This document shows, one piece after another, positions 10,716 to 42,888 of a stretch of 64,000 bases of DNA. Where the stretch lies: contig DATKNR010000030.1 in the NCBI GenBank assembly GCA_035541255.1, positions 4,171 to 68,170 of the forward strand, given 5' to 3'. Each line of letters opens with the position of its first letter. Position 1 is the first letter of the stretch. This DNA comes from Patescibacteria group bacterium. GTDB lineage: Bacteria; Acidobacteriota; Terriglobia; Acidiferrales; UBA7541. Below the pieces are notes generated by a model. The model was given only the letters and a program-made list of their open reading frames with translations, did not search any database and was not told the DNA's origin. The position numbers and the translations under genes are program-made.

Positions 10716-12085
10716 AAACCACTCTCCTGATCGTGGAAGACGAAGCGCCGATGCGCCGCCTGCTGGAACTGAGCCTGGGCGAAGAAGGCTACAACACGCA
10801 GTCGGTGGAAACAGCCGAAGCCGGCTTGAAGCTCCTCCAGGCGGGCAACGTGGACCTGGTTCTCACCGACCTGAAGTTGCCGGGCATGAGCGGCCTCGAA
10901 TTGCTCGAAGCCGGCCGCCACCTCCGCGCCGACCTGCCGTTCATCGTAATGACCGCGTACGGAACTGTGGAAAGCGCGGTGGAAGCCATGAAGGCCGGCG
11001 CCAACGATTATGTGCTCAAGCCCTTTTCACTCGACGAAATCAAACTTGTCGTGCGACGCACGCTGGACGTGCGCCGGCTGCGGGAGGAAAACCGCGACCT
11101 CCGCGAGGCGCTGGGCAAGCGGTACGATCTCCCCGGAATCGTGGCGCAAAGTCCGAAAATGCAGGAAGCGCTCGGAATGGTGGAGCGAGTGGCGCAAACG
11201 AATTCCACGGTGCTGATCTGCGGCGAGAGCGGGGTGGGCAAGGACCTGATTGCGCGCGCCATTCACCAGCGCTCCCGCCGCTCGCGCGGCCCTTTCCTGA
11301 AAATCAATTCGACCGCCATTCCCGAAAACCTGCTCGAGAGCGAGCTGTTTGGCTACGAGAAGGGCGCGTTTACCGGGGCGGCCTCAAGCAAGCCGGGAAA
11401 ATTCGAACTTGCGGACGGAGGCACGCTGTTCCTTGATGAGATTGGGGACGTTCCTCCGCCGGTTCAGGTGAAATTGCTGCGCGTGCTGCAGGAGCGCGAA
11501 TTCGAACGCCTGGGCGGCACGCGAACGGTGAAGGTGGATGTGCGGCTTGTCGCCGCCACCAACCGCGATCTTCGCGCGGCGCTCGAAGAGGGCACCTTTC
11601 GAGAAGATCTGTACTACCGCCTGAACGTGGTGCCCATCAACCTTCCTCCCCTGCGCGAGCACAAGGAGGACATCCCCGCGCTTGCCGCTCTCTTCCTTCG
11701 CAAGTGCTGCGAGTCATCCGGCAAGAAAATTGACGGCATCAGCCCCACGGCGATGGAACGGCTGACGCAATTCCACTGGCCGGGCAACGTGCGCGAACTG
11801 GAAAACGTAATCGAACGCGCGGTGGCCCTCTCGCAAGGAAACGTGCTGGAGCCGGCGGACATCCTTCTTGATGAGCCCGCGCAAAAACCGGCCGCCGGCG
11901 CCTCCGATGCGCCTTTTCTACCGGAGGGATTGACCCTGGAACAGTGGGAAGACGAGATGATTCGAGAGGCGATGCGCCGCGCCAATGGAAACAAGAGCCA
12001 GGCCGCACGATTGCTCGGCCTTTCCCGCAATGCTCTACGCTACCGCCTCTCCAAGCTCGGCTTCGCCGTAGAAGCAGAAGAATAG
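10712..12085 (+). CDS. sigma-54-dependent response regulator (NtrC family)
   Basis: Canonical receiver ([30 protein letters not shown]). AAA+ with Walker A GESGVGKD and GAFTGA. C-terminal Fis-type HTH ([21 protein letters not shown]). Confidence 0.95.
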
Positions 12086-33817: not shown

Positions 33818-33836
33818 GTGGGCAATTATTCCCCCC
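33818..33836. promoter_or_regulatory. locus palindrome copy a (GTGGGCAATTATTCCCCCC)
   Basis: Imperfect copy of the GGGGGAAT-N-ATTCCCCC motif, about 190 bp upstream of the GAF-HlyD start. A partial GGGGAGGAATTC lies 7 nt upstream of it. Confidence 0.4.
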
Positions 33837-33920
33837 GCTCGCACGAGTTTTGGAGGTGAGGCCTACAGCGGACGAGACAGCAACACGGCCACTGCCGAAA
33901 AGTGCCCGTGCCGCCTTTTC

Positions 33921-33950
33921 TTGACACCGCCAGAGGCCATTTGCTAGCCT
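33921..33950 (+). promoter_or_regulatory. candidate promoter of the GAF-HlyD/HlyD/M50 operon
   Basis: TTGACA (33921-26), 18-nt spacer, TAGCCT (33945-50). It overlaps a weak GG-N10-GC element (aGGCCAtttgctAGCc, 33935-48). The sigma factor cannot be decided from sequence. Confidence 0.3.
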
Positions 33951-34020: not shown

Positions 34021-36441
34021 ATGGAACGGCTCGAGGCTCTTTATGAGCTGGCGACTTCGTATCATTCGTGCCGGGATACGGAAGGCCTCCTGAAAGCATT
34101 TGCGCGCGATCTGCGCGCTCGTCTGGGGCCCCAGGCTGTCCTTCTCTGGCTGAAGGATGGCGGCGAAGAATCCCTGCGCTGCCGTGAAAAGTCGTTCGCG
34201 GCCGGTGAGCGAATCGAACCACGGCAGGAGGGCGAAGCCGATGGCTTGCTGACCGAGGTCCTCGTCTCGCGCGGATCCCGGCGGCTGGGGGCGGCCGAAA
34301 AAAAGGCCCGGCTCCTTTCTCACCTCGATCCCGCCTATCGCGAACGCGTCCAGACAGCGCTGTACGTCTCCATTCCCGGCGCCTCGGGGCCTGCGGGGGT
34401 CGCGGAACTGCTGAACAAAGCCGGCGGCGAGTTCACCACCGAAGACGGCGCGTATCTCGAAGAAGCCGCACGCATGACCGGGCGTGCCCTGGACGCGATT
34501 CGCGCAGCCGAGACGGAGCGCAACGCGCAGTTCGAAACGCTGGAACGGCTCACCGCGCTTTACGATATCGCGCGCATATTCAACTCCACGCTTGAGCGGG
34601 AAGACCTGTGCCCCATCGTGACCAGCAAGATCCGCGACATCCTGGGAGCGCAGGCGTGCAACCTATGGCTTGTGGGCTCTGACGGCGAGTCGCTAGAGTT
34701 TGCCCATCAGGATGGGGAAGACCCCACCACGGACGAGAACACCGAAGTCACGATGGGCGAGGGGTTGGTCGGGGCAGTGGCTCGCGATGGGAAAGGTCTC
34801 CTGGCAGCCGACGCGTCCGTGGAGGCGCTGCTCGATTCCCGGCGCTCCGCGGTGGAGGGATTTACGATCACTTCCGCCATGGCCGCCCCGCTGCTCAAGG
34901 ACGATCGCGTGCTCGGCGTGGTCGAAGTGATCAACAAACTCGACGAGACTCAGTTCGACGATGACGACCTGTTTTTCCTCAACAGCGTGGGGGAGCAGGC
35001 CGGACTCGCCGTCCACAATGCCAACCTGCTGCAGGCCGAGCGCAAAGTGCACGAATTGGGAGCGCTGCTGACGCTGAGCAAGGAAATCACTTCCACGCTG
35101 GATCTCGACCACATTCTCACCACCCTGGTCCATCAGGCGGCGGAAGTGCTTCCCTTCGAACGCTGCACGATCGGCCTTTACGACGGCGCGAAGTTTTATC
35201 TTGCGGCGGTATCCGGTGAGCCGGAAGTGCCGGACACGCCGGAGATGAAGCGCCTTCGCGAGGTTCTGGAATGGGCCGGAGAGGACTACGAAGCGGTATC
35301 CGCGGACTGCGAGGATGGGACCTGGACGAGCGCGCCCGAAAAGCCGGATCCGCGCCTGATTCCTTACCTGACCGAGCGACAGATGAACGGTTTCTACGCA
35401 CGGTCGCTCCGCGACGACCAGGGCACGCTGGGCGTGATCGCGCTGGAGAGTCCTGAAGCGGAGTTTCTGTCCGAAAGCCAGCTCGAAACTCTTGAAATTC
35501 TGGCCAGCCAGGTGACCGTGGCGATTCGAAACGCGCGGTTGTACCAGAACGTCCCGCTGATTCGCGTCTGGCAGCCCGTGGTGGAAACGCGGCAGAAGTT
35601 GCGGTCGGTGGCTGTAGGGCGGCGTATCGAGCTGTTTACCCGGGCGATCGTGGTCGCTGTTCTCCTGGTGGCCGTGCCTTGGCCAATGCGGGTGGACGGG
35701 ACAGCGCACGTCATCCCGGCGCAGCGGAGAGTAATCACTGCGGAGTCGGACGGCATCATCCGGCAGGTCTTCGTCCACGAAGGCGAACGCGTGGAGGCCG
35801 GGGCTCCGCTTGCCCAGCTCGATACTGGTGAAATCAATGTCCGGCTGGAGACCGCGCGGGCGCAACTTGCCCTGGCGCGCCACGATCTTGCCGAGGCTCA
35901 GTATCGGCGGGACATGGAAGGCGCCGGCAGGGCTCGCCTGCGCATGGACATGGCCCAGGCCGCTGTGGATCTGGAGAGTGATCGGCTGGCTCGCGCCCGC
36001 CTCGTCGCGCCCATGGAAGGCCTGGTGGTGACCCCAAAAGTCGAGGAAAAAGTGGGCCGGCTCATTACGCGTGGCGAAACCTTCTGCGAATTGGTCGAGC
36101 CAAACCGCATGGCGGCTGACGTTTTGTTTCCGGAGACTGACGAATCGATGGTCCGGCCCGGCGCTTCCGTTGCCCTGAAGGTCAATGCCCTGCCCTCCGT
36201 CACCTTCCATGGCAAAGTGGAGTGGCTGGGCACGCAGACGGTCGCTTCCGAGGGCGACCAATATTTCCAGGCGCGTGCCGTGTTCGAGAACGCCATGGGT
36301 TTGCGCGACGACATGGTCGGTCAGGCCAAAGTGGGCGTGCGCGGCGGATGGTTCCAGAGCGGCTGGTATCCCGTGGGGTATGTTCTGTTGCGGCCGCCGG
36401 CCCGTTGGCTGTGGCGGAAAGTGTGGACTTGGCTTCCGTGA
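34021..36441 (+). CDS. triple-GAF domain / TM / HlyD-family (membrane-fusion) protein
   Basis: GGAGG SD. Three repeated GAF-like units. Each opens with an LExL..L..I....L helix: LEALYELATSY..., LTALYDIARIFNSTLERE..., LGALLTLSKEITSTLDLD.... One TM (AIVVAVLLVAVPW). Then an MFP lipoyl/coiled-coil/beta-barrel pattern (ITAESDGIIRQVFVHEGERVEAGAPLAQLD ... LVAPMEGLVV). Confidence 0.85.
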   Translation: MERLEALYELATSYHSCRDTEGLLKAFARDLRARLGPQAVLLWLKDGGEESLRCREKSFAAGERIEPRQEGEADGLLTEVLVSRGSRRLGAAEKKARLLSHLDPAYRERVQTALYVSIPGASGPAGVAELLNKAGGEFTTEDGAYLEEAARMTGRALDAIRAAETERNAQFETLERLTALYDIARIFNSTLEREDLCPIVTSKIRDILGAQACNLWLVGSDGESLEFAHQDGEDPTTDENTEVTMGEGLVGAVARDGKGLLAADASVEALLDSRRSAVEGFTITSAMAAPLLKDDRVLGVVEVINKLDETQFDDDDLFFLNSVGEQAGLAVHNANLLQAERKVHELGALLTLSKEITSTLDLDHILTTLVHQAAEVLPFERCTIGLYDGAKFYLAAVSGEPEVPDTPEMKRLREVLEWAGEDYEAVSADCEDGTWTSAPEKPDPRLIPYLTERQMNGFYARSLRDDQGTLGVIALESPEAEFLSESQLETLEILASQVTVAIRNARLYQNVPLIRVWQPVVETRQKLRSVAVGRRIELFTRAIVVAVLLVAVPWPMRVDGTAHVIPAQRRVITAESDGIIRQVFVHEGERVEAGAPLAQLDTGEINVRLETARAQLALARHDLAEAQYRRDMEGAGRARLRMDMAQAAVDLESDRLARARLVAPMEGLVVTPKVEEKVGRLITRGETFCELVEPNRMAADVLFPETDESMVRPGASVALKVNALPSVTFHGKVEWLGTQTVASEGDQYFQARAVFENAMGLRDDMVGQAKVGVRGGWFQSGWYPVGYVLLRPPARWLWRKVWTWLP

Positions 36442-36491: not shown

Positions 36492-37403
36492 ATGAAATCC
36501 TGGGCACTCTGCCTGTCGGCCGCGCTGCTGGCCGCCATGGCCGCGGGATGCAGCAGCGAGCCCGCACCCGAACGGGCCGCAGCGGCCTCCTCGCGCACGC
36601 CCTCTTCTCATCCGGCGGCTGCGACGGCTTCCGCAGCTTCCGCGCGGGAGATCCCAGCAGTGCTGATGGTGGAGCATGAGGTGGACGTGGTGGCGGAAGG
36701 CGACGGTGAGGTCATCGGGCTAAACGCCGATGAGGGATCGGAAGTGACTGCCGGCGGACTTCTCGCGCGGCTGGATTCACGGCAGGTGCAGGCGCAGCTC
36801 GAGCAAGCGCAGGCCGACCTGAAGATTTCCGAGTACAACGTGAAATACAACGAAGCCGAACTCCACGCCAACGAGTCCCGTCTAAGACGCGCCCAGCTCA
36901 TGTTTAACGAAGGACTCGGCAGCAAGGCCGACCTGGACACCGCCGAATTTCAAGCCAAGGGTTCCGCGTACGACCTGGAAAGCTGGAAGGCAACCGTTGA
37001 GAAGCGCCACGCAGAGGTGAAAGGCCTCGAACTTCAACTTCAAAAAACCCGCATCCTTGCGCCCTTTGCCGGCGTGATCTCGCGGCGATACGTTCGCGAG
37101 GGCGACGTGGTCACCAAGGGAACCAAATGTTTCCGCCTCAGCCAACTGAGCCCGCTGCTCGTGGAATTTCAGGTGCCGGAAACCGATGCCCACAAGCCGG
37201 CTGTGGCACAGCCCGTGAAAGGGACTTTGCTGAGCGATCCAAACCGCTGGTTTGACGCGCGAATCACACGCGTCAGCCCAGTTGTGGATGCGGCTAGCGG
37301 AAGTTACGAGGTCAGGGCCACGCTTCTGGCGCCATCGCCGGAGCTAAAGCCTGGGATGGCCGTTCGGATCGTCTGGCCCGCGCCCTCCACGCCTCACCCC
37401 TGA
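36492..37403 (+). CDS. lipoprotein HlyD/RND-type periplasmic adaptor (membrane-fusion protein)
   Basis: ATG at 36492 after GGAGAG. Lipobox LAAMAAGC. MFP pattern (VVAEGDGEVIGLNADEGSEVTAGGLLARLD, coiled-coil hairpin, ILAPFAGVISRRYVREGDVV). The ORF-track 5' extension (36222) is rejected. Confidence 0.85.
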   Translation: MKSWALCLSAALLAAMAAGCSSEPAPERAAAASSRTPSSHPAAATASAASAREIPAVLMVEHEVDVVAEGDGEVIGLNADEGSEVTAGGLLARLDSRQVQAQLEQAQADLKISEYNVKYNEAELHANESRLRRAQLMFNEGLGSKADLDTAEFQAKGSAYDLESWKATVEKRHAEVKGLELQLQKTRILAPFAGVISRRYVREGDVVTKGTKCFRLSQLSPLLVEFQVPETDAHKPAVAQPVKGTLLSDPNRWFDARITRVSPVVDAASGSYEVRATLLAPSPELKPGMAVRIVWPAPSTPHP

Positions 37404-37406
37404 GCC

Positions 37407-39578
37407 ATGCGGCTCGGTCCCACTTCGCTGCGGGCCCAGGGTGCCGTGGCCCGTGCCCTGCGGCGTCCCAAGCTGCGGGAGGACCTCCAAATCAGTGAGC
37501 AAGTGGTCCGCGGCGAGACCAGCTTTGTCATCAAGGTTCCTCACCTGTTCAAATACGCGCGCTATGGACCGCTGGAATTCAGCGTATTGAAGCAGGCGGA
37601 TGGCACGCGAACCCTCGCGGAAATTGCCGCCGGCGTCAACGCGGAGGCCGGGGAAGAAGCGATCGGCGAAGCTGACGTCGGCGACTTCCTCGAATCCACC
37701 GATCCCGACCTGTGGGAGGAGGGAGCGGGGAAAAAGAATCTTGCCATCCTGGAAAAGATCCGCGAGGAACGACGCGAGCGCGTAAACACGGCAAGCGTTT
37801 TGTACATCCACTTTTCCGCGTGGAATCCCGACCGCACTCTCGAACGGATTCTGCCCTACCTCCGCTGGCTCTTCACCCCGTGGTTCGTCGCGTTCTCGGT
37901 GCTCCTGTACACCGTCATGGCAGTGATCCTGGCAAACAACTGGACGCGCGTGCAGAGCGACACGGTGGCGTTCTACACCTTCACGAATAAGACCCTCTAT
38001 GACATCTGGGAATTCTGGGCGATTTTGTTCGTGGTGATCGCCGTCCATGAGTTCGGCCACGGACTTACCTGCAAGTATTTTGGCGGTGAGGTGCCGCGGA
38101 TGGGCTTCATGCTCATCTATTTCGGGCCGGCCTTTTTCACCGACACGACGGACATGCACGTATTCGATAAGTCGTCGAAGCGGCTATGGGTCATTTTCGC
38201 CGGGCTGTGGATCGAAATGGTCATCTGCGCATTTGCCACGATTGCTTGGGCGCTTGCGCCTCCCGGCTCTTCCTTCAGCGACCTGTGTTACAAGACGGTC
38301 CTGCTCACCGGCGTCTCCGGGCTCATCTTCAACCTGAATCCGCTGATGAAGTACGACGGTTACTACGCGCTCATGCAGTTTCTCGAGATCGACAACATGC
38401 GCGAGGACGCTTTCGATTACCTGAAATTGTGGATGCGGCGCTACGTGCTGAGGCAGGACGTCGAGCTGCCTCAGGTGGGCAAGCGCCGGCGGCGGATCTT
38501 TCTCATTTATGCTTCGCTTGCCGTCCTGTATGGCGCATTCGTGCTGATTCTGGTCGCGGGGTGGCTCAGGAATTTCTTGGTGAATCGCCTCGGCGTGGGC
38601 TGGGGTTATTTAATCACGGCCGTGGCGTTGTACTTCATGACGCGCAAGAGTTTGTTGCCGGCACTTGCCACGGTGCGTAACCGCCTGCCCGTTTGGAAGG
38701 AGCATCTTATGGCCTGGAAAATGTCGAGAACGCAGCAGGTGGGAGTCGCCGCCGCTTTCCTTCTGATTCTGGTCACACCGATTTCTCGCACCACCACCAG
38801 CGAATTCCTGCTCGAGCCAGGCGTGCGAGCCGAGGCCCGTGCGCAGATGTCCGGATGGGTCGACCAGGTGCTCATCCGCTCCGGCGATTCCGTAAACCAG
38901 GGGCAGGTACTGGCCGTGTTGCGCAACCCCGAACTCGATGCCCATCTCCGCGAGCTCTCCGCGCAGCGTTCTCTCGCCGAGAATTCGCTTCTGGCGTCCC
39001 GCCAGCGGCGGGATAACAACGCCGCCGACGTCGCGTTCCGTGAATTCCAGCGTCTGGACGCGGCGGTGCACGAGGCCCGTGTGCAACAGGGTCACCTCTT
39101 GTTGCTGGCGCCGCACACGGGCGTTGTGACCACGCTCGGTGTGGAACAGACCGTAGGCGAATTCCTGCCGCAGGGCGGACTGTTTGCCGTCATCGCAGAC
39201 CGCAGTGTGATGCGCGCGCGCATCCTGGTGCGCGACTGGGAACTTCAGTATGTCACCGACGCCGCGTCCAACTCTCCGTCCGGTATGGAAGCCCTGCTCA
39301 ATGTGCGTTCCTATCCTTATCGCAGCTTTGAGGGCCGGGTGACGCGAATCCTGCCCGCGGCGGCGACGGACGAGCCCGTCACTCTTCCCAAAAGCCCGGA
39401 GAGGGCGGGTCAGCGCCTCAGCAACTACTTTGCTGTGGAGATGGAATTCCAGAATTCCGGGGGCGAATTGCGGGAAGGTATGACGGGCACTGCCAAAATC
39501 TATGGTGCACATCGGCGGCCACTGATCTGGCAGTGGACGCGGGGATCCTGGCGCTGGCTTCGTTCTGTTCTCTGGTAG
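37407..39578 (+). CDS. PqqD-like N-domain / M50 (site-2-protease-type) intramembrane zinc metalloprotease / HlyD-like C-domain fusion
   Basis: Starts 3 nt after the upstream stop. HEFGH zinc motif in a TM helix (FVVIAVHEFGHGLTCKYFGGEV). Second S2P motif FNLNPLMKYDGYY. Multiple TMs. C-terminal MFP-like lipoyl/coiled-coil/barrel (GWVDQVLIRSGDSVNQGQVLAVL ... LLAPHTGVVTT). Confidence 0.85.
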   Translation: MRLGPTSLRAQGAVARALRRPKLREDLQISEQVVRGETSFVIKVPHLFKYARYGPLEFSVLKQADGTRTLAEIAAGVNAEAGEEAIGEADVGDFLESTDPDLWEEGAGKKNLAILEKIREERRERVNTASVLYIHFSAWNPDRTLERILPYLRWLFTPWFVAFSVLLYTVMAVILANNWTRVQSDTVAFYTFTNKTLYDIWEFWAILFVVIAVHEFGHGLTCKYFGGEVPRMGFMLIYFGPAFFTDTTDMHVFDKSSKRLWVIFAGLWIEMVICAFATIAWALAPPGSSFSDLCYKTVLLTGVSGLIFNLNPLMKYDGYYALMQFLEIDNMREDAFDYLKLWMRRYVLRQDVELPQVGKRRRRIFLIYASLAVLYGAFVLILVAGWLRNFLVNRLGVGWGYLITAVALYFMTRKSLLPALATVRNRLPVWKEHLMAWKMSRTQQVGVAAAFLLILVTPISRTTTSEFLLEPGVRAEARAQMSGWVDQVLIRSGDSVNQGQVLAVLRNPELDAHLRELSAQRSLAENSLLASRQRRDNNAADVAFREFQRLDAAVHEARVQQGHLLLLAPHTGVVTTLGVEQTVGEFLPQGGLFAVIADRSVMRARILVRDWELQYVTDAASNSPSGMEALLNVRSYPYRSFEGRVTRILPAAATDEPVTLPKSPERAGQRLSNYFAVEMEFQNSGGELREGMTGTAKIYGAHRRPLIWQWTRGSWRWLRSVLW

Positions 39579-39623: not shown

Positions 39624-39660
39624 CAAAAAGTAGAGGCCATCCCAGCGTCGGGATGGCCTC
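39624..39660 (-). terminator. intrinsic terminator of peptide gene P1
   Basis: Minus-strand hairpin GAGGCCATCCC-gacgct-GGGATGGCCTC followed by TACTTTTT. It lies 22 nt after the P1 stop. Confidence 0.7.
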
Positions 39661-39682
39661 CAAGGAAAATGCAAGGGGGCAG

Positions 39683-39751
39683 TTACTTCTTTGCGGAGAG
39701 AGTCTTGGTGCCGGAAAGCTTCTTGCCTCTCTTCAAGCTCTTCTTTGCCAT
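39683..39751 (-). CDS. Lys-rich mini-protein P1 (22 aa): MAKKSLKRGKKLSGTKTLSAKK
   Basis: Hand-translated. ATG 6 nt after GGAGGA. Paralogous to P2 and P3 at protein and DNA level. It has its own sigma-54-type promoter and terminator. The in-frame 78-aa track ORF 39683..39919 is the unsupported long form. Confidence 0.7.
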   Translation of the reverse strand: MAKKSLKRGKKLSGTKTLSAKK

Positions 39752-39808
39752 CTCCCATCCTCCGGGGCACCCGCCTTTCTTCCTGGCTTGCGCCCATCCG
39801 CTGTGTGT

Positions 39809-39826
39809 GAGCATTCTTAGTACCGA
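39809..39826 (-). promoter_or_regulatory. sigma-54-type promoter of P1 (tCGGTACtaagaaTGCTc)
   Basis: GG-N10-GC spacing with a TGC(T) -12 element. The GC lies 60 nt upstream of the P1 ATG. The -24 is weaker than in P2-P4 (CGG rather than TGG). Confidence 0.55.
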
Positions 39827-39952
39827 ATCCGCTGCAATGCAAGTGGCAGTATCCCGTGGGATCGGCTCGGGGCCGGAATCGGAAGTCGCGCTGCCCAAGC
39901 GTCCGGCTTGGAGATCCATTCATTGGCAGTCAGCTCGTGCACTGCGAATCTG

Positions 39953-39995
39953 AAAAACGAGGAGGCCGCCACCGGGGGGAGGTGGCGGCCTTTTG
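39953..39995. terminator. strong GC hairpin flanked by A/T tracts (terminator of the P4 transcript, possibly bidirectional)
   Basis: aaaaacgagga-GGCCGCCACC-gggggga-GGTGGCGGCC-ttttggggg. On the minus strand it is followed by tcctcgttttt. Confidence 0.55.
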
Positions 39996-40165
39996 GGGGT
40001 TACGGGCGGAGTAAAACTCAAAATCTTCGAATGTGATGACGGTCTGTCTCGCTCTGTTCTCCCAGGTCTTCCTTCTCATTCGTAAGCAGATTCAACTTCC
40101 AGCCATCGAAACCTTTTCCGCCTTGCGATCTCTCCAGACTGCGTCAATCAGGACTCAACGACTTA

Positions 40166-40183
40166 GTGCATTTTGCGAGCCAA
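40166..40183 (-). promoter_or_regulatory. fourth sigma-54-type promoter (tTGGCTCgcaaaaTGCAc) without a MAKK ORF
   Basis: Same GG-N10-GC/TGCA architecture as the P2 and P3 promoters. Downstream, at the equivalent distance (62 nt), there is only ATG GCT GGA AGT TGA. Confidence 0.5.
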
Positions 40184-40383
40184 ACGCAGAAGCGTGCTGA
40201 GTCCCCTCCCACACCCGGAAACAAAGCATTTATGGCCTGCTTCCGTCCGCACACCGGGGGAAAAACTCCGCCCGAGGGAGAAATCACCCCCTTCCGGAAA
40301 ATGCACTTGGGAGAACAAGAGCGCCATCACAATGCAGCGGAGGCGTGGCGTGGGACGCGGGGAGAAATTCCGGTTGTCGTGCA

Positions 40384-40419
40384 GGCAAAACAAAAGGGCC
40401 ATCCCGGATGGGATGGCCC
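40384..40419 (-). terminator. intrinsic terminator of peptide gene P2
   Basis: Minus-strand hairpin GGGCCATCCC-atcc-GGGATGGCCC followed by TTTTGTTTTG. It lies 27 nt after the P2 stop. Confidence 0.7.
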
Positions 40420-40446
40420 CGAAAGCGTTCAATTCAAGCTGTTCAG

Positions 40447-40533
40447 TTACCGAAGTCCCCGCATGTTATTTACGGCAGACAGGGTCTTCGAAGGCGCCAG
40501 CTTCTTGCCCTTCTTCAATTCTTTCTTCGCCAT
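40447..40533 (-). CDS. Lys-rich mini-protein P2 (28 aa): MAKKELKKGKKLAPSKTLSAVNNMRGLR
   Basis: Hand-translated. ATG 5 nt after GGGAGGA. The first 39 nt are nearly identical to P3. It has its own sigma-54-type promoter and terminator. Confidence 0.7.
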   Translation of the reverse strand: MAKKELKKGKKLAPSKTLSAVNNMRGLR

Positions 40534-40584
40534 GTGAATCCTCCCGGTGGATTTGGATATCGTTTACCTGCTTCACTGAAGTAG

Positions 40585-40602
40585 TAGCATTCCTGGGGCC
40601 AA
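40585..40602 (-). promoter_or_regulatory. sigma-54-type promoter of P2 (tTGGCCCcaggaaTGCTa)
   Basis: TGGC at -24 and TGCT at -12 with exact GG-N10-GC spacing. The GC lies 54 nt upstream of the ATG. The 5' UTR shares the block ATCCAAATCCA..GGAGGATTC with P3. Confidence 0.65.
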
Positions 40603-40714
40603 AGTTTGGGAAGATTTATGTCAATCTGGTTGTTCAATATAAACGGGTTAGCTTCGACGCTGGACGACCGCTGATTCGGGTTTGGCGTGCTTCGGGGCAT
40701 TCCTTGGCCCTTGA

Positions 40715-40732
40715 GGGGGAATAATTTCCACC
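40715..40732. promoter_or_regulatory. locus palindrome copy b (GGGGGAATAATTTCCACC), putative enhancer/UAS for P2
   Basis: Its centre lies about 123 bp upstream of the -24 GG of the P2 promoter. That is a typical bEBP enhancer distance. Confidence 0.5.
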
Positions 40733-40877
40733 GCTTTGGCCTGCTGACTGGCATGGTATCGAATCTCGTTGGCGAGCAAACGCGCCAGGACCGGAAGATG
40801 GCGCGAACAGGGAAGAGGGGAACCGCCTGAACGTTGCTGACAGATCAGGGAAGGGGATTGCCCATCTGTGCCGGAAA

Positions 40878-40913
40878 CGCAAAAGAAAAGGGCCACCCGG
40901 GTGTGGGTGGCCC
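40878..40913 (-). terminator. intrinsic terminator of peptide gene P3
   Basis: Minus-strand hairpin GGGCCACCC-acaccc-GGGTGGCCC followed by TTTTCTTTTG. It lies 20 nt after the P3 stop. Confidence 0.7.
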
Positions 40914-40933
40914 TTTGACCTCAGAAACTTGGA

Positions 40934-41008
40934 CTAGTAGGTGCCGCGTCCACCGAGGCTCTTCGTGCCGGCCAGCTTCTTGCCCTTCTTCAACGCTTTC
41001 TTCGCCAT
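40934..41008 (-). CDS. Lys-rich mini-protein P3 (24 aa): MAKKALKKGKKLAGTKSLGGRGTY
   Basis: Hand-translated. ATG 6 nt after GGAGGA. Paralogous to P1 and P2. It has its own sigma-54-type promoter and terminator. Confidence 0.7.
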   Translation of the reverse strand: MAKKALKKGKKLAGTKSLGGRGTY

Positions 41009-41059
41009 TTCGAATCCTCCAACTGGATTTGATAGGCCCCTGAGGGCTGAATGAGAGTC

Positions 41060-41077
41060 TTGCACTTCTCTTACCAA
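41060..41077 (-). promoter_or_regulatory. sigma-54-type promoter of P3 (tTGGTAAgagaagTGCAa)
   Basis: GG-N10-GC with a TGCA -12 element. The GC lies 54 nt upstream of the ATG, the same distance as in P2. Confidence 0.65.
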
Positions 41078-41187
41078 ATCCCGCGGCATTTTTTCCACAG
41101 CCGCCTGAAGCAAACAATGGGCTTAGAGGCGACGAAGTTGGGCACGCGGCCAAGAAAAAGTGGAAAAGGGGAGAAAGCAGGTCGTCA

Positions 41188-41204
41188 GGGGGAATTATTC
41201 CCCC
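41188..41204. promoter_or_regulatory. locus palindrome copy c (GGGGGAATTATTCCCCC, perfect 8-1-8), putative enhancer/UAS for P3
   Basis: Perfect inverted repeat. Its centre lies about 121 bp upstream of the -24 GG of the P3 promoter, matching the copy b/P2 geometry. Confidence 0.55.
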
Positions 41205-41366: not shown

Positions 41367-42755
41367 CTATAATTGGTGCTTCCGGCAGAGATATTTCATC
41401 CGGTCTTTGTTCACACCCAGCAGTCTTGCCGCCTGGATTTTCACACCGGAGGCCTGTGCCAGCGCGGTCTCCACCCACTTTTTTTCGTAGGTTTCGAGCT
41501 CGGCTTCTAAGTCGAATCCGGAAGGTGGCAGGCGGAAACGGCCCCGCGCATCCCGGGTGGCGGCCTGCACGATGTCCCGGGGCAGATCACTCAGTTCTAT
41601 CCTGTCCCCATCCGTCATCAGCACGATGCGCTGCACCGCATTCTCCAGCTCGCGGACATTTCCAGGCCAGCGGTAGTTTTGCAGCGCCTGCATGGCTTCT
41701 TCGCTCACGGTCTTGGGTTCCGAGTGATTTGCCACGCAATACACGCGCACAAAATGGTTCACCAGCAGCGGAATATCCGACTCGCGCTCCCGCAGCGGCG
41801 GCAGAAACACGGGGACCACGTGAATCCGGAAGTACAAGTCTTCCCGGAACCGTTTTTCCTCGACTGCCGCTTCCAAATCCTCGTTCGTCGCTGTGAGCAG
41901 CCGAAAGTCCACTGCCAGCGGCCGTTTGCCGCCCAGATGAATCACCGCGTGGTCCTCCAGCACGCGCAGCAGCTTGCTCTGCAATGCCGGGGTCAGCGTA
42001 CCAATTTCGTCCAGGAACAGAGTTCCCCGGTGCGCCAACTCGATGCGTCCTTCCTTGCTTTCCGTGGCGCCGGTAAATGCCCCCTTCTCGTACCCGAAAA
42101 GCTCCGCCTCCATCAGGGTTTCCGGCAGTGCAGCGCAATTCACGCTGATAAAGGGACGTGCGCGCCGCTCGCTTAGGTCGTGGATGGCGTGCGCCACCAG
42201 CTCTTTTCCCGTTCCGCTCTCTCCGCGGATGCACACCGTGGTTGTTTTGGGAGCCACACGGCGGACCAGGTCGAAGATTGGCCGCATGGCGTCGCTCGCG
42301 CCAATCAGGTTTCCCAGCGATTCCTTCCGCTGGATCTGCTCCCGCAGGATGCGGTTCTCCCGTTCCACCCGCTGCTTTTCCACGGCCCGGTCCAGAAAGG
42401 GACGGAAAACGTCAGGGTCAATGGGGTGTGCGAAAAAATCGTACGCGCCCGATTCCATCGCGCGGACAGCCGTGGCTTTGCGCGGGTCGCGGCTCAGGAT
42501 TACGACCATCGTGTCCATCTCGCGGGAGCGCAGCCGTTCGACGAGCGCCTCGAACCGGCGGAAGCTCGCGGCCCCGGGTTCCAGGTTGTACAGGATCAAA
42601 TCGGGCCGCGCTTCATCGATCAACGGCCATTCCGATTCTTCCTCGGTGGACTGGTAGATCTCATAATCCGGGAGAAGCCGGCTCACCACCGGCTGCAGAC
42701 CGCTCACGTCGTTCGTCATGATGACGACGTGGCAGCGGCTTGGGTTGGGGGACAT
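41367..42755 (-). CDS. sigma-54 enhancer-binding protein with degenerate receiver domain
   Basis: AAA+ core ([27 protein letters not shown]) and C-terminal HTH (SGVKIQAARLLGVNKDRMKYL). The N-terminal REC-like fold has Asn in place of the phospho-Asp (PDLILYNLEP). ATG at 42755 was chosen because the track TTG start (42842) coincides with the -35 hexamer. Confidence 0.9.
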   Translation of the reverse strand: MSPNPSRCHVVIMTNDVSGLQPVVSRLLPDYEIYQSTEEESEWPLIDEARPDLILYNLEPGAASFRRFEALVERLRSREMDTMVVILSRDPRKATAVRAMESGAYDFFAHPIDPDVFRPFLDRAVEKQRVERENRILREQIQRKESLGNLIGASDAMRPIFDLVRRVAPKTTTVCIRGESGTGKELVAHAIHDLSERRARPFISVNCAALPETLMEAELFGYEKGAFTGATESKEGRIELAHRGTLFLDEIGTLTPALQSKLLRVLEDHAVIHLGGKRPLAVDFRLLTATNEDLEAAVEEKRFREDLYFRIHVVPVFLPPLRERESDIPLLVNHFVRVYCVANHSEPKTVSEEAMQALQNYRWPGNVRELENAVQRIVLMTDGDRIELSDLPRDIVQAATRDARGRFRLPPSGFDLEAELETYEKKWVETALAQASGVKIQAARLLGVNKDRMKYLCRKHQL

Positions 42756-42813: not shown

Positions 42814-42842
42814 ATTCTAGGAAGCGCCGCCCGGGTTGTCAA
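42814..42842 (-). promoter_or_regulatory. sigma-70-type promoter of the EBP gene
   Basis: On the minus strand: TTGACA (42842-42837), 17-nt spacer, TAGAAT (42819-42814). The -10 lies about 59 nt upstream of ATG 42755. Confidence 0.5.
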
Positions 42843-42871
42843 ATGAGATTGTCAGGCGAGCTACGCCCTGT

Positions 42872-42888
42872 GGTGGAATAATTTCCCC
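42872..42888. promoter_or_regulatory. locus palindrome copy d (GGTGGAATAATTTCCCC) just upstream of the EBP promoter
   Basis: Same GGAATAATTTCC core as copy b. It lies 30 bp upstream of the -35 hexamer, so autoregulation is plausible. Confidence 0.45.

Follow-up and report, generated by a model that had tools for sequence, protein, structure and literature searches.

Lysine-rich mini-genes beside an RRE-M50-HlyD fusion gene in soil Acidobacteriota: likely peptide precursors with predicted sigma-54 promoters

Acidobacteriota are among the most abundant soil bacteria, and to our knowledge almost nothing is known of their peptide signalling or peptide natural products. In a 64-kb stretch of DNA from a soil acidobacterium of the Terriglobia (the window), very short, lysine-rich open reading frames (ORFs) lie on the minus strand of positions 39624-41204. 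Three of them, P1, P2 and P3, are, judging from their pattern of substitution, real, conserved and translated mini-genes. Their products are likely to be processed, secreted peptide precursors, because they are encoded beside a membrane protease to which a peptide-binding domain and an export adaptor are fused. With a confidence a little better than even, we read the locus as a self-contained peptide production module, in which a cationic leader would be recognised by an RRE domain and cut off by an M50 protease, and the remaining tail would be exported. What is observed directly is the genes themselves, their translation-type conservation, the architecture of promoters and enhancers, the synteny and the domain make-up of the protease.

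An earlier note on the window had proposed these three ORFs with their translations, and all were recovered as described: P1 at 39683-39751 (MAKKSLKRGKKLSGTKTLSAKK), P2 at 40447-40533 (MAKKELKKGKKLAPSKTLSAVNNMRGLR) and P3 at 40934-41008 (MAKKALKKGKKLAGTKSLGGRGTY). The Shine-Dalgarno (SD) sequence GGAGGA was likewise found 5-6 nt ahead of each ATG, and P2 and P3 do share a block of the 5' untranslated region and 36 of their first 39 coding nucleotides. A six-frame motif search of the window gave no further intact copy. Species-representative genomes were scanned with the back-translated pattern L-K-[KR]-G-K-K-L-x3-K-[TS]-L; a profile harvest over the fetched loci (the L-numbers below, L001 being the public record with gene calls matching the window) gave 48 members, and a profile search of a 5.8-billion-protein collection gave 116 more. 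Altogether 142 non-redundant members were assembled, all from Terriglobia (Acidobacteriota), and the peptide statistics below refer to them. The short, SD-preceded ORFs of the pattern scan came only from Acidiferrales, Acidobacteriaceae, Acidipila, Sulfotelmatobacter and Bryobacterales; pattern matches in other phyla were discarded, as they were not ORF starts and many were chance matches in AT-rich genomes. The 116 members of the protein collection (24-106 aa) have no Pfam domains, and each is named 'hypothetical protein'. The peptides gave nothing at E<=10 against NCBIfam and Pfam and no match against PADLOC, so that the question whether they belong to a known family was answered in the negative for these collections, and literature searches on the motif KKGKKL and on combinations of M50, HlyD and precursor found nothing relevant. 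This is a large unannotated peptide family, whose genes are mostly missed by gene callers or swapped for spurious ORFs on the opposite strand. In the public gene calls, a 101-aa plus-strand ORF without Pfam match overlays the cassettes (window 40232-40537, L001 12826-13131); it is probably a spurious call, made where the true mini-genes were missed.

Among 25 colinear copies of the conserved N-terminal block (N-block), nucleotide entropy was 0.48, 0.41 and 1.02 at the first, second and third codon positions, and 0.20, 0.07 and 0.72 at codons whose residue is at least 90% conserved. Substitutions thus fall mostly at third positions, which argues for selection on the protein and not on the RNA. 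Together with the orthologues in relatives, this bears out the claim that the ORFs are paralogous, translated peptide genes. The same evidence brings one rival explanation, and only this one, close to exclusion, namely that the cassettes are sigma-54-dependent small RNAs with incidental ORFs. Their form as short, monocistronic units ended by a terminator would suit such RNAs, as would a fourth cassette that retains promoter and terminator without an ORF; the third-position substitutions, the reading frame kept in more than 140 members and the strong SD sequence, of the GGAGG type in 41 of 44 cassettes, would not. Against Rfam the cassettes matched no family at gathering score and gave only weak terminator-like matches.

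The fourth cassette (unit 4, 39963-40182, minus strand), situated between P1 and P2, had been missed when the earlier note counted three, of which P1 to P3 stand as real. Its -24/-12 box (TGGCTCGCAAAATGCA, 40167-40182) and terminator (39991-39963) are intact and its ORF is destroyed, now reading ATG GCT GGA AGT TGA with the SD sequence displaced. It aligns with intact orthologues in three relatives (L007 10640-10735, L008 11046-11135, L041 238-327), and because these carry an intact MSKTG/MAKTG-type ORF in the aligned cassette, we regard unit 4, on the alignment, as a decayed copy of that paralogue, which may still be transcribed. Two other readings of unit 4, as a separate acidic peptide with a TTG start (MNLLTNEKEDLGEQSETDRHHIRRF) and as a small RNA, were ruled out by the same alignment.

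The peptides consist of one nearly invariant block followed by very different tails. The N-block has the consensus MAKKxLKKGKKLxGxKTL and a net charge of about +9; whole peptides carry a mean net charge of +8.8 and are composed of 25% Lys, 14% Gly and 12% Leu, with Cys in only 3 sequences. When the Leu of G-K-K-L is numbered as position 0, L(-6), K(-5), K(-4), G(-3), K(-2), K(-1), L(0), K(+4) and L(+6) are conserved at 96-100%, among them K(-5), K(-2), L(0), K(+4) and L(+6) at 99-100%, and T(+5) is conserved at 86%. Beyond +6 the sequences fall into discrete tail classes: VxN[LM]RSI..., Gly-rich, ...DPYKNF[KR]F, ...GGDRPSE[ST], ...LNPQPLPP and I[TV]ITKxID.... P3 belongs to the Gly-rich class (hidden Markov model, HMM, score 37.1; orthologues in L007, L008, L059 and L074), P2 to the VxN[LM]R class (orthologues in L007, L008 and L059), and P1 to a class that is almost leader-only. 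Other tails are tandem repeats of 6-7 residues, such as GG[IV]KTL six to seven times, xxTLRG four times, GALTRP three times, SGVLQR five times and APGTVLR four times (repeat-tail members at L009 10386-10574, L115 ~6698, L119 ~9538, L142 ~5443 and L051 7506-7655). The 3/6-residue hydrophobic rhythm of the N-block runs on into the tails (phase 0 0.40, phase 3 0.37, other phases 0.13-0.21; Fisher p 2e-10). If the N-block is a shared leader, just this would be expected, an invariant segment attached to many different tails that look like cargo. This split into conserved leader and variable tail goes beyond the earlier note, as do the RRE domain and the activator dyads described below. The tandem-repeat tails resemble multi-copy pheromone precursors or multi-core precursors. 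The DPYKNF[KR]F ending (L012 ~1630; P0151; P0173, at L097 5306-5398) may resemble N-terminal motifs of phage-tail-like tube proteins; no gene for such a tube protein was seen beside L097.

The predicted processing machinery is encoded on the plus strand by an operon of three genes. The first encodes a GAF-GAF-HlyD/MFP protein of 806 aa (34021-36441) and the second a further HlyD/MFP adaptor, identified by profile matches (36492-37403; 303 aa as called in L001). The third (37407-39578) encodes a 723-aa fusion of an RRE domain, a site-2 protease (S2P)/M50 metalloprotease and an HlyD/MFP adaptor, here called M50-HlyD. The HExxH motif (HEFGH, residues 214-218) and the NxxPxxxxDG motif (NLNPLMKYDG, residues 309-318) are invariant in 33 M50-HlyD homologues, all of which match the Pfam M50 family PF02163 at E<0.05. 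The best curated match of the protein is the daptide intramembrane metalloprotease NF041824, at 179.8 bits against a cutoff of 300 and over profile positions 14-364 of 379. The Pfam PqqD/RRE family (PF05402) matches the N terminus of 13 of the 33 homologues. Because a full-length fold search was dominated by the adaptor domain, the N-terminal domain was modelled apart from the rest of the protein. In the AlphaFold model, residues 21-100 form a beta3-alpha3 domain (pLDDT ~80), with strands at 28-34, 37-44 and 49-53 and helices at 55-63, 70-81 and 88-97, and the best fold neighbours of this domain are PqqD, TbiB1 with bound leader, another lasso B1 protein and the RRE of CteB (probability 0.99-1.0, TM ~0.6, E ~0.03). 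The three-stranded sheet, the three helices and this fold similarity are those of a PqqD-like RRE, as far as the model goes. The C-terminal 260 residues match MacA, MexA and AcrA in Foldseek at E 1e-14 to 1e-12, and adaptor profiles match chains of MacA, EmrA and HlyD, in keeping with the lipoyl, alpha-hairpin and beta-barrel fold of such adaptors. Hydropathy and the model agree on seven membrane helices, with the N-terminal domain inside the cell and the adaptor outside. The net charge of the RRE, -8.7 (range -11 to -6), mirrors the +8.8 of the peptides.

According to the daptide paper, daptide clusters were discovered by way of RRE domains that precede a site-2 protease in one fusion protein. 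Each cluster has on average 2.3 short precursor ORFs with a leader motif in common at the N terminus, and this leader is cut off by the protease. The window protein has the same RRE-then-S2P/M50 architecture as the daptide protease MpaP/DapP and is homologous to it over nearly the full length, and here too several short, similar ORFs per locus combine a conserved N-terminal block with a variable remainder. Processing of the peptides by the neighbouring M50 protease, a role suggested in the earlier note, is accordingly the best supported one, with both the N-terminal RRE and the homology to the daptide leader peptidase in its favour. The locus is, however, not a daptide cluster, because it lacks the daptide leader motif, the C-terminal Thr and the modifying enzymes. 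In place of the daptide leader ELExMEAP, which was not found in the 142 peptides, stands the polycationic, Lys-rich MAKKxLKKGKKL; the C-termini of these peptides are varied, whereas in daptides a Thr is invariant; and none of the MpaB, MpaC, MpaD and MpaM enzymes is encoded in the conserved module (three MFP genes, peptides, activator gene, sometimes a SET gene). The NF041824 score also lies below the family cutoff, the protease carries an additional C-terminal HlyD/MFP domain and is accompanied by two further MFP genes, each precursor is driven by its own sigma-54 promoter as predicted, and the host belongs to Acidobacteriota, and not to Actinomycetota or Bacillota as in daptides. The principle of an RRE joined to a site-2 protease, known from the daptides of Gram-positives, would thus be extended to the diderm envelope through fusion to an export adaptor.

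M50 proteases are also listed in the epipeptide and pearlin pathways (review). The epipeptide pair YydF/EpeX and YydH/EpeP resembles the present one in that a membrane M50 protease, proposed to cleave and export, lies beside a small peptide, and JGI labels the M50-HlyD family with the YydH-type name 'putative peptide zinc metalloprotease'. Nevertheless, the locus is not an epipeptide cluster: the match to the YydH/LiaK family NF058609 is weak (57 bits against a cutoff of 225), there is neither a radical-SAM epimerase nor an ABC transporter, and the peptides are unrelated. Class II microcins and colicin V are exported by a leader-cleaving exporter (CvaB), an HlyD-type adaptor (CvaA) and TolC. 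In working logic they would share with the present system unmodified peptides, a removable N-terminal leader, a leader protease coupled to an envelope route and HlyD adaptors with an alpha-hairpin; unlike them, the present locus has an S2P/M50 protease with an RRE where they have an ABC transporter bearing a C39 domain, and it lacks both an ATPase and a double-glycine leader. A preprint on TMcins describes peptides with a transmembrane helix and was set aside as an analogy only. What is new is the peptide family, the RRE-S2P protein fused to a periplasmic adaptor with two extra adaptors, and one predicted sigma-54 promoter per precursor with a defined enhancer dyad.

The conserved cationic N-block might itself be the active part, as a secreted antimicrobial or membrane-active peptide whose activity is tuned by the tails, with M50-HlyD serving export or self-protection instead of removing a leader. 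The charge, the lysine content and the near-lack of Cys would suit this, several paralogues per locus and copies by mobile-element genes are common for bacteriocins, and for M50 proteases of the EpeP type a double part in cleavage and export has been suggested. We nevertheless consider it unlikely, since strict conservation at every position of a 13-residue block typically marks a recognition sequence and not an amphipathic antimicrobial, a Leu every 6 residues gives no amphipathic alpha-helix, and the RRE of the protease predicts recognition of the leader type.

The peptides and the protease gene keep company over a wide range of divergence. Five M50-HlyD homologue loci were read closely (86, 79, 73, 61 and 51% protein identity), and in all five GAF-GAF-HlyD, HlyD and M50-HlyD lie on one strand and one to six small ORFs, clear orthologues or paralogues of P1, P2 and P3, on the other, followed by a gene for a 462-aa sigma-54 enhancer-binding protein (EBP); the position of the cassettes between the M50/HlyD operon and a sigma-54 activator gene, which the earlier note had pointed out, recurs in all of them. 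A metagenome scan with the M50-HlyD alignment gave more than 340 relatives, and among the loci fetched, 60 retained the whole 3' end with 1.2 kb or more beyond it. HMM-detectable peptides lie on the opposite strand in 39 of these 60. In 15 of the remaining 21, the same slot holds Lys-rich mini-ORFs that are more divergent but have an SD sequence and a TGG-N9-TTGCA box, which brings the count to about 54 of 60 (~90%) and supports both the functional link that had been proposed and the co-occurrence by which it was to be checked. The EBP gene follows in 36 of the 38 loci that extend 4 kb or more into the flank. Leader and protease drift in step, the leader changing from MAKKxLKKGKKLxGxKTL at protease identities of at least 60% to MAKKTLKKSKKIEATKPL and MAKAKPVKKGKKLGSVKPL at 45-50%, and then to ...KKLEKKAPL.

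This drift bears on another explanation, in which the products are small basic proteins that stay in the cell, are controlled by sigma-54 under stress, attach to nucleic acid, ribosomes or membrane, and share with the operon only a regulator. Their composition is like that of histone tails, true orphan cassettes stand in unrelated neighbourhoods, the M50 operon has a sigma-70-type promoter of its own, and a SET-domain gene accompanies the peptides in seven loci, all of which such proteins could accommodate. They could hardly account for the ~90% of M50-HlyD loci that keep peptides in the slot down to 45% protease identity, for a leader that changes along with the protease, or for the acidic RRE, and it is difficult to see why a structural binder should have hypervariable tails with expanded repeats; we therefore hold this explanation to be quite unlikely.

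Control of the cassettes by sigma-54 and the adjacent EBP, as predicted from sequence and as the earlier note had supposed, is supported by comparison among relatives. Across the window a loose sigma-54 pattern occurs 29 times against 23 expected and is thus not enriched, and because this count is not significant alone, comparative support was sought. In 44 non-redundant cassettes, TGG[CT]-N8-TGC[AT] with its GC 49-70 nt upstream of the ATG was found 37 times, against about 10 matches (maximum 19) anywhere in 115 nt of the shuffled control; a stable downstream hairpin was found in most. Boxes of the form TGG(C/T) and TGC(A/T) had been noted ahead of P1, P2 and P3 and are present there, although the P1 box starts with C and not T. 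The GGGGAATnATTCCCC dyad is present at 11 or more of 14 positions in 20 of 40 cassettes, against 0.3 expected, and all 20 dyads sit at -124 to -131 or -106 to -113 from the box (about -127 and -108), which suggests two adjacent sites about two helical turns apart. The predicted promoters thus have GG/GC doublets at fixed positions, upstream sites and an EBP encoded nearby. As in NtrC-family sigma-54 regulons, an REC-AAA+-HTH_8 activator is combined with GG-N10-GC promoters and paired dyads about 100-130 nt upstream; unlike in the named regulons of that family, the targets are dispersed mini-genes and the activator is no named equivalog. The family's dedicated regulator and its DNA site are defined in this way, as predictions, and the leader HMM combined with the -24/-12 box gives a simple search rule for cassettes genome-wide.

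In the window, the P3 box (TGGTAAGAGAAGTGCA, 41061-41076, minus strand) lies at the position kept in the 37 cassettes, and its upstream activator dyad (GGGGAATTATTCCCC, 41189-41203, 14/14) about 127 nt further upstream of the -24 element; the P3 terminator (40887-40916, minus strand) has a 12-bp stem and a T-tract. The GG-N10-GC box of P2 (TGGCCCCAGGAATGCT, 40586-40601, minus strand) is preceded by a dyad (40716-40730, 12/14) about 129 nt upstream, and a hairpin with T-tract follows the ORF (40395-40420, minus strand). P1 has its box (CGGTACTAAGAATGCT) at 39810-39825 and a terminator with a 14-bp stem at 39631-39662, both on the minus strand, and no recognisable upstream dyad (best match 8/14), the dyad being absent from P1-type cassettes in general. 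A hairpin with T-tract after each ORF had been claimed before and is borne out by strong stems of 11-14 bp; the 100-150 nt expected of the transcripts is too short, the predicted length being about 170-190 nt. The cassette region is richer in AT than its flanks, as had been seen by eye (GC 0.52-0.56 against 0.60-0.66).

The EBP gene itself (REC-AAA+-HTH_8, 462 aa; 41367-42755) lies upstream of the cassettes on the same, minus strand; the best match of its product, PEP_resp_reg, reaches 405 bits against a cutoff of 503, and the protein is not an equivalog of any named regulator. Only four matches to the dyad at 12 or more of 14 positions occur in the window, upstream of P3, P2, the EBP gene and the M50 operon. 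The EBP control region (42814-42887, minus strand) contains a dyad at 42873-42887 (12/14) and a sigma-70-like promoter, TTGACA-N17-TAGAAT; the promoter is kept in 6 of 6 loci and the dyad in 3 of 6. The control region of the M50 operon (33820-33950, plus strand) has the dyad GGGCAATTATTCCCC at 33820-33834 (13/14) and a sigma-70-like TTGACA-N18-TAGCCT at about 33921-33950, which is kept in 5 of 6 loci. At the same threshold the operon dyad was found in the window only and not in the five relatives, and for this reason we do not claim the operon as a member of the regulon. The dyads ahead of the M50 operon and the EBP gene may indicate autoregulation. The window also encodes, outside this locus, another sigma-54 activator with an REC domain (Sigma54_activat E 8.5e-74, Response_reg E 6.5e-28).

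The production module that we favour would work as follows. The sigma-70-driven operon would supply three periplasmic-adaptor (HlyD/MFP) proteins, one of them with two cytoplasmic GAF sensor domains and another as the fusion of an acidic cytoplasmic RRE, a site-2-type M50 protease and a MacA/MexA-like adaptor. The EBP, of the response-regulator type and phosphorylated by a kinase, would bind the GGGGAATnATTCCCC dyads ~108 and ~127 nt upstream of the -24/-12 element and fire each monocistronic cassette, giving a transcript of ~180 nt with a strong SD sequence, an ORF of 20-60 codons and a terminator. The polycationic N-block would serve as the leader and, on the inner side of the membrane, dock on the acidic RRE; cleavage by the M50 site would take place near the K-T-L boundary, and the variable tail, often made of 6-7-residue tandem units, would leave through the adaptor conduit. 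Binding of the leader by the RRE, the position of cleavage, export and the function of the tail are the steps that we infer. That the tails are signals is our leading guess, made because of the response-regulator control and the repeated short units.

Several points weigh against this mechanism. Export of a cationic peptide across an inside-negative membrane needs energy, and the module has no pump; no ABC, RND or MFS pump and no outer-membrane factor was found in the conserved module of the loci read, and none among the 25 of 53 Pfam families listed for the rest of the window. Because of this energetic cost, our proposal is that the tail, being less charged, is the only part to leave. Conservation beyond K-T-L is loose (G, S or R, then G, A or T), which makes the cleavage site a guess. 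The Pfam M50 score of the window protein, 25.3, falls just under the gathering score of 27.2, and the E-values of the RRE fold matches (~0.03) are marginal. In the window, no modifying enzyme was found in the module or among the same 25 families, so that the system of the window is not a RiPP (ribosomally synthesised and post-translationally modified peptide) in the strict sense; for this scope, the earlier statement that the window lacks lanthipeptide, radical-SAM and YcaO enzymes stands. There are also true orphan cassettes, at a long distance from any M50 gene. Finally, the tails of P1-type peptides have only 2-4 residues and make little sense as cargo. Some members of the family, these above all, or even the whole family might instead be regulators or decoys that sit on the RRE or act as a gate for the protease-adaptor complex. 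Peptides of the P1 type consist of little more than the leader, always adjoin the 3' end of the M50-HlyD gene and, without the upstream dyad, would be controlled differently. As this idea leaves the tail diversity and repeat expansion of the other members unexplained and we found no precedent for it, we think it very unlikely.

The favoured module could also be the outline of something broader, an undescribed ribosomal peptide system with a single fusion of RRE, protease and adaptor, two further adaptors and no ATP-driven pump, in which the short tails, many of them tandem hexa- or heptapeptide repeats, would be released as extracellular signals, the sigma-54 regulon would be dispersed and of a plug-in kind, and a SET enzyme would methylate lysines in about half of the lineages; we put this forward tentatively, as possible but doubtful. 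If it is true, the SET-methylated versions would be a new RiPP class. A SET-domain gene of 150-175 aa, with the protein-lysine methyltransferase fold, lies between the EBP gene and the cassettes or among the cassettes in seven related loci (L008 13012-13476, L009 10957-11484, L018 1972-2442, L039 1377-1811, L074 3619-4116, L086 7224-7691 and L092 6088-6534) and is absent from the window, L007, L010 and L011; its product is a candidate modifier of the Lys-rich peptides. L009 has in addition a decayed SET copy at 11560-11906.

Orphan cassettes often form mini-arrays near transposase or resolvase genes, and cassettes may therefore be mobilised or duplicated with mobile elements. Apparent orphans at the edges of the genome-scan blocks are unreliable, because these blocks are fixed at 8 kb; L059 and L041, for instance, are adjoining halves of one locus. 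At least one orphan, L072, keeps both the box and the dyad, which fits a dispersed regulon. Orphan mini-arrays at L097 4451-5029 and on the JGI 3300050821 contig with P0190 lie beside Y1 transposase, resolvase and rve integrase genes. In two of the more distant loci, a STAS-domain gene of the anti-sigma-antagonist type lies divergently upstream of the GAF-HlyD gene (L010 3975-4325; L011 4114-4449). The metagenome-assembled genome MFD02248.bin.1.15 (Acidobacteriaceae) holds at least three separate peptide loci (L019, L041/L059 and L078), two of them with different EBP paralogues (89% and 59% identity to the EBP of the window), so that several parallel systems per genome are possible.

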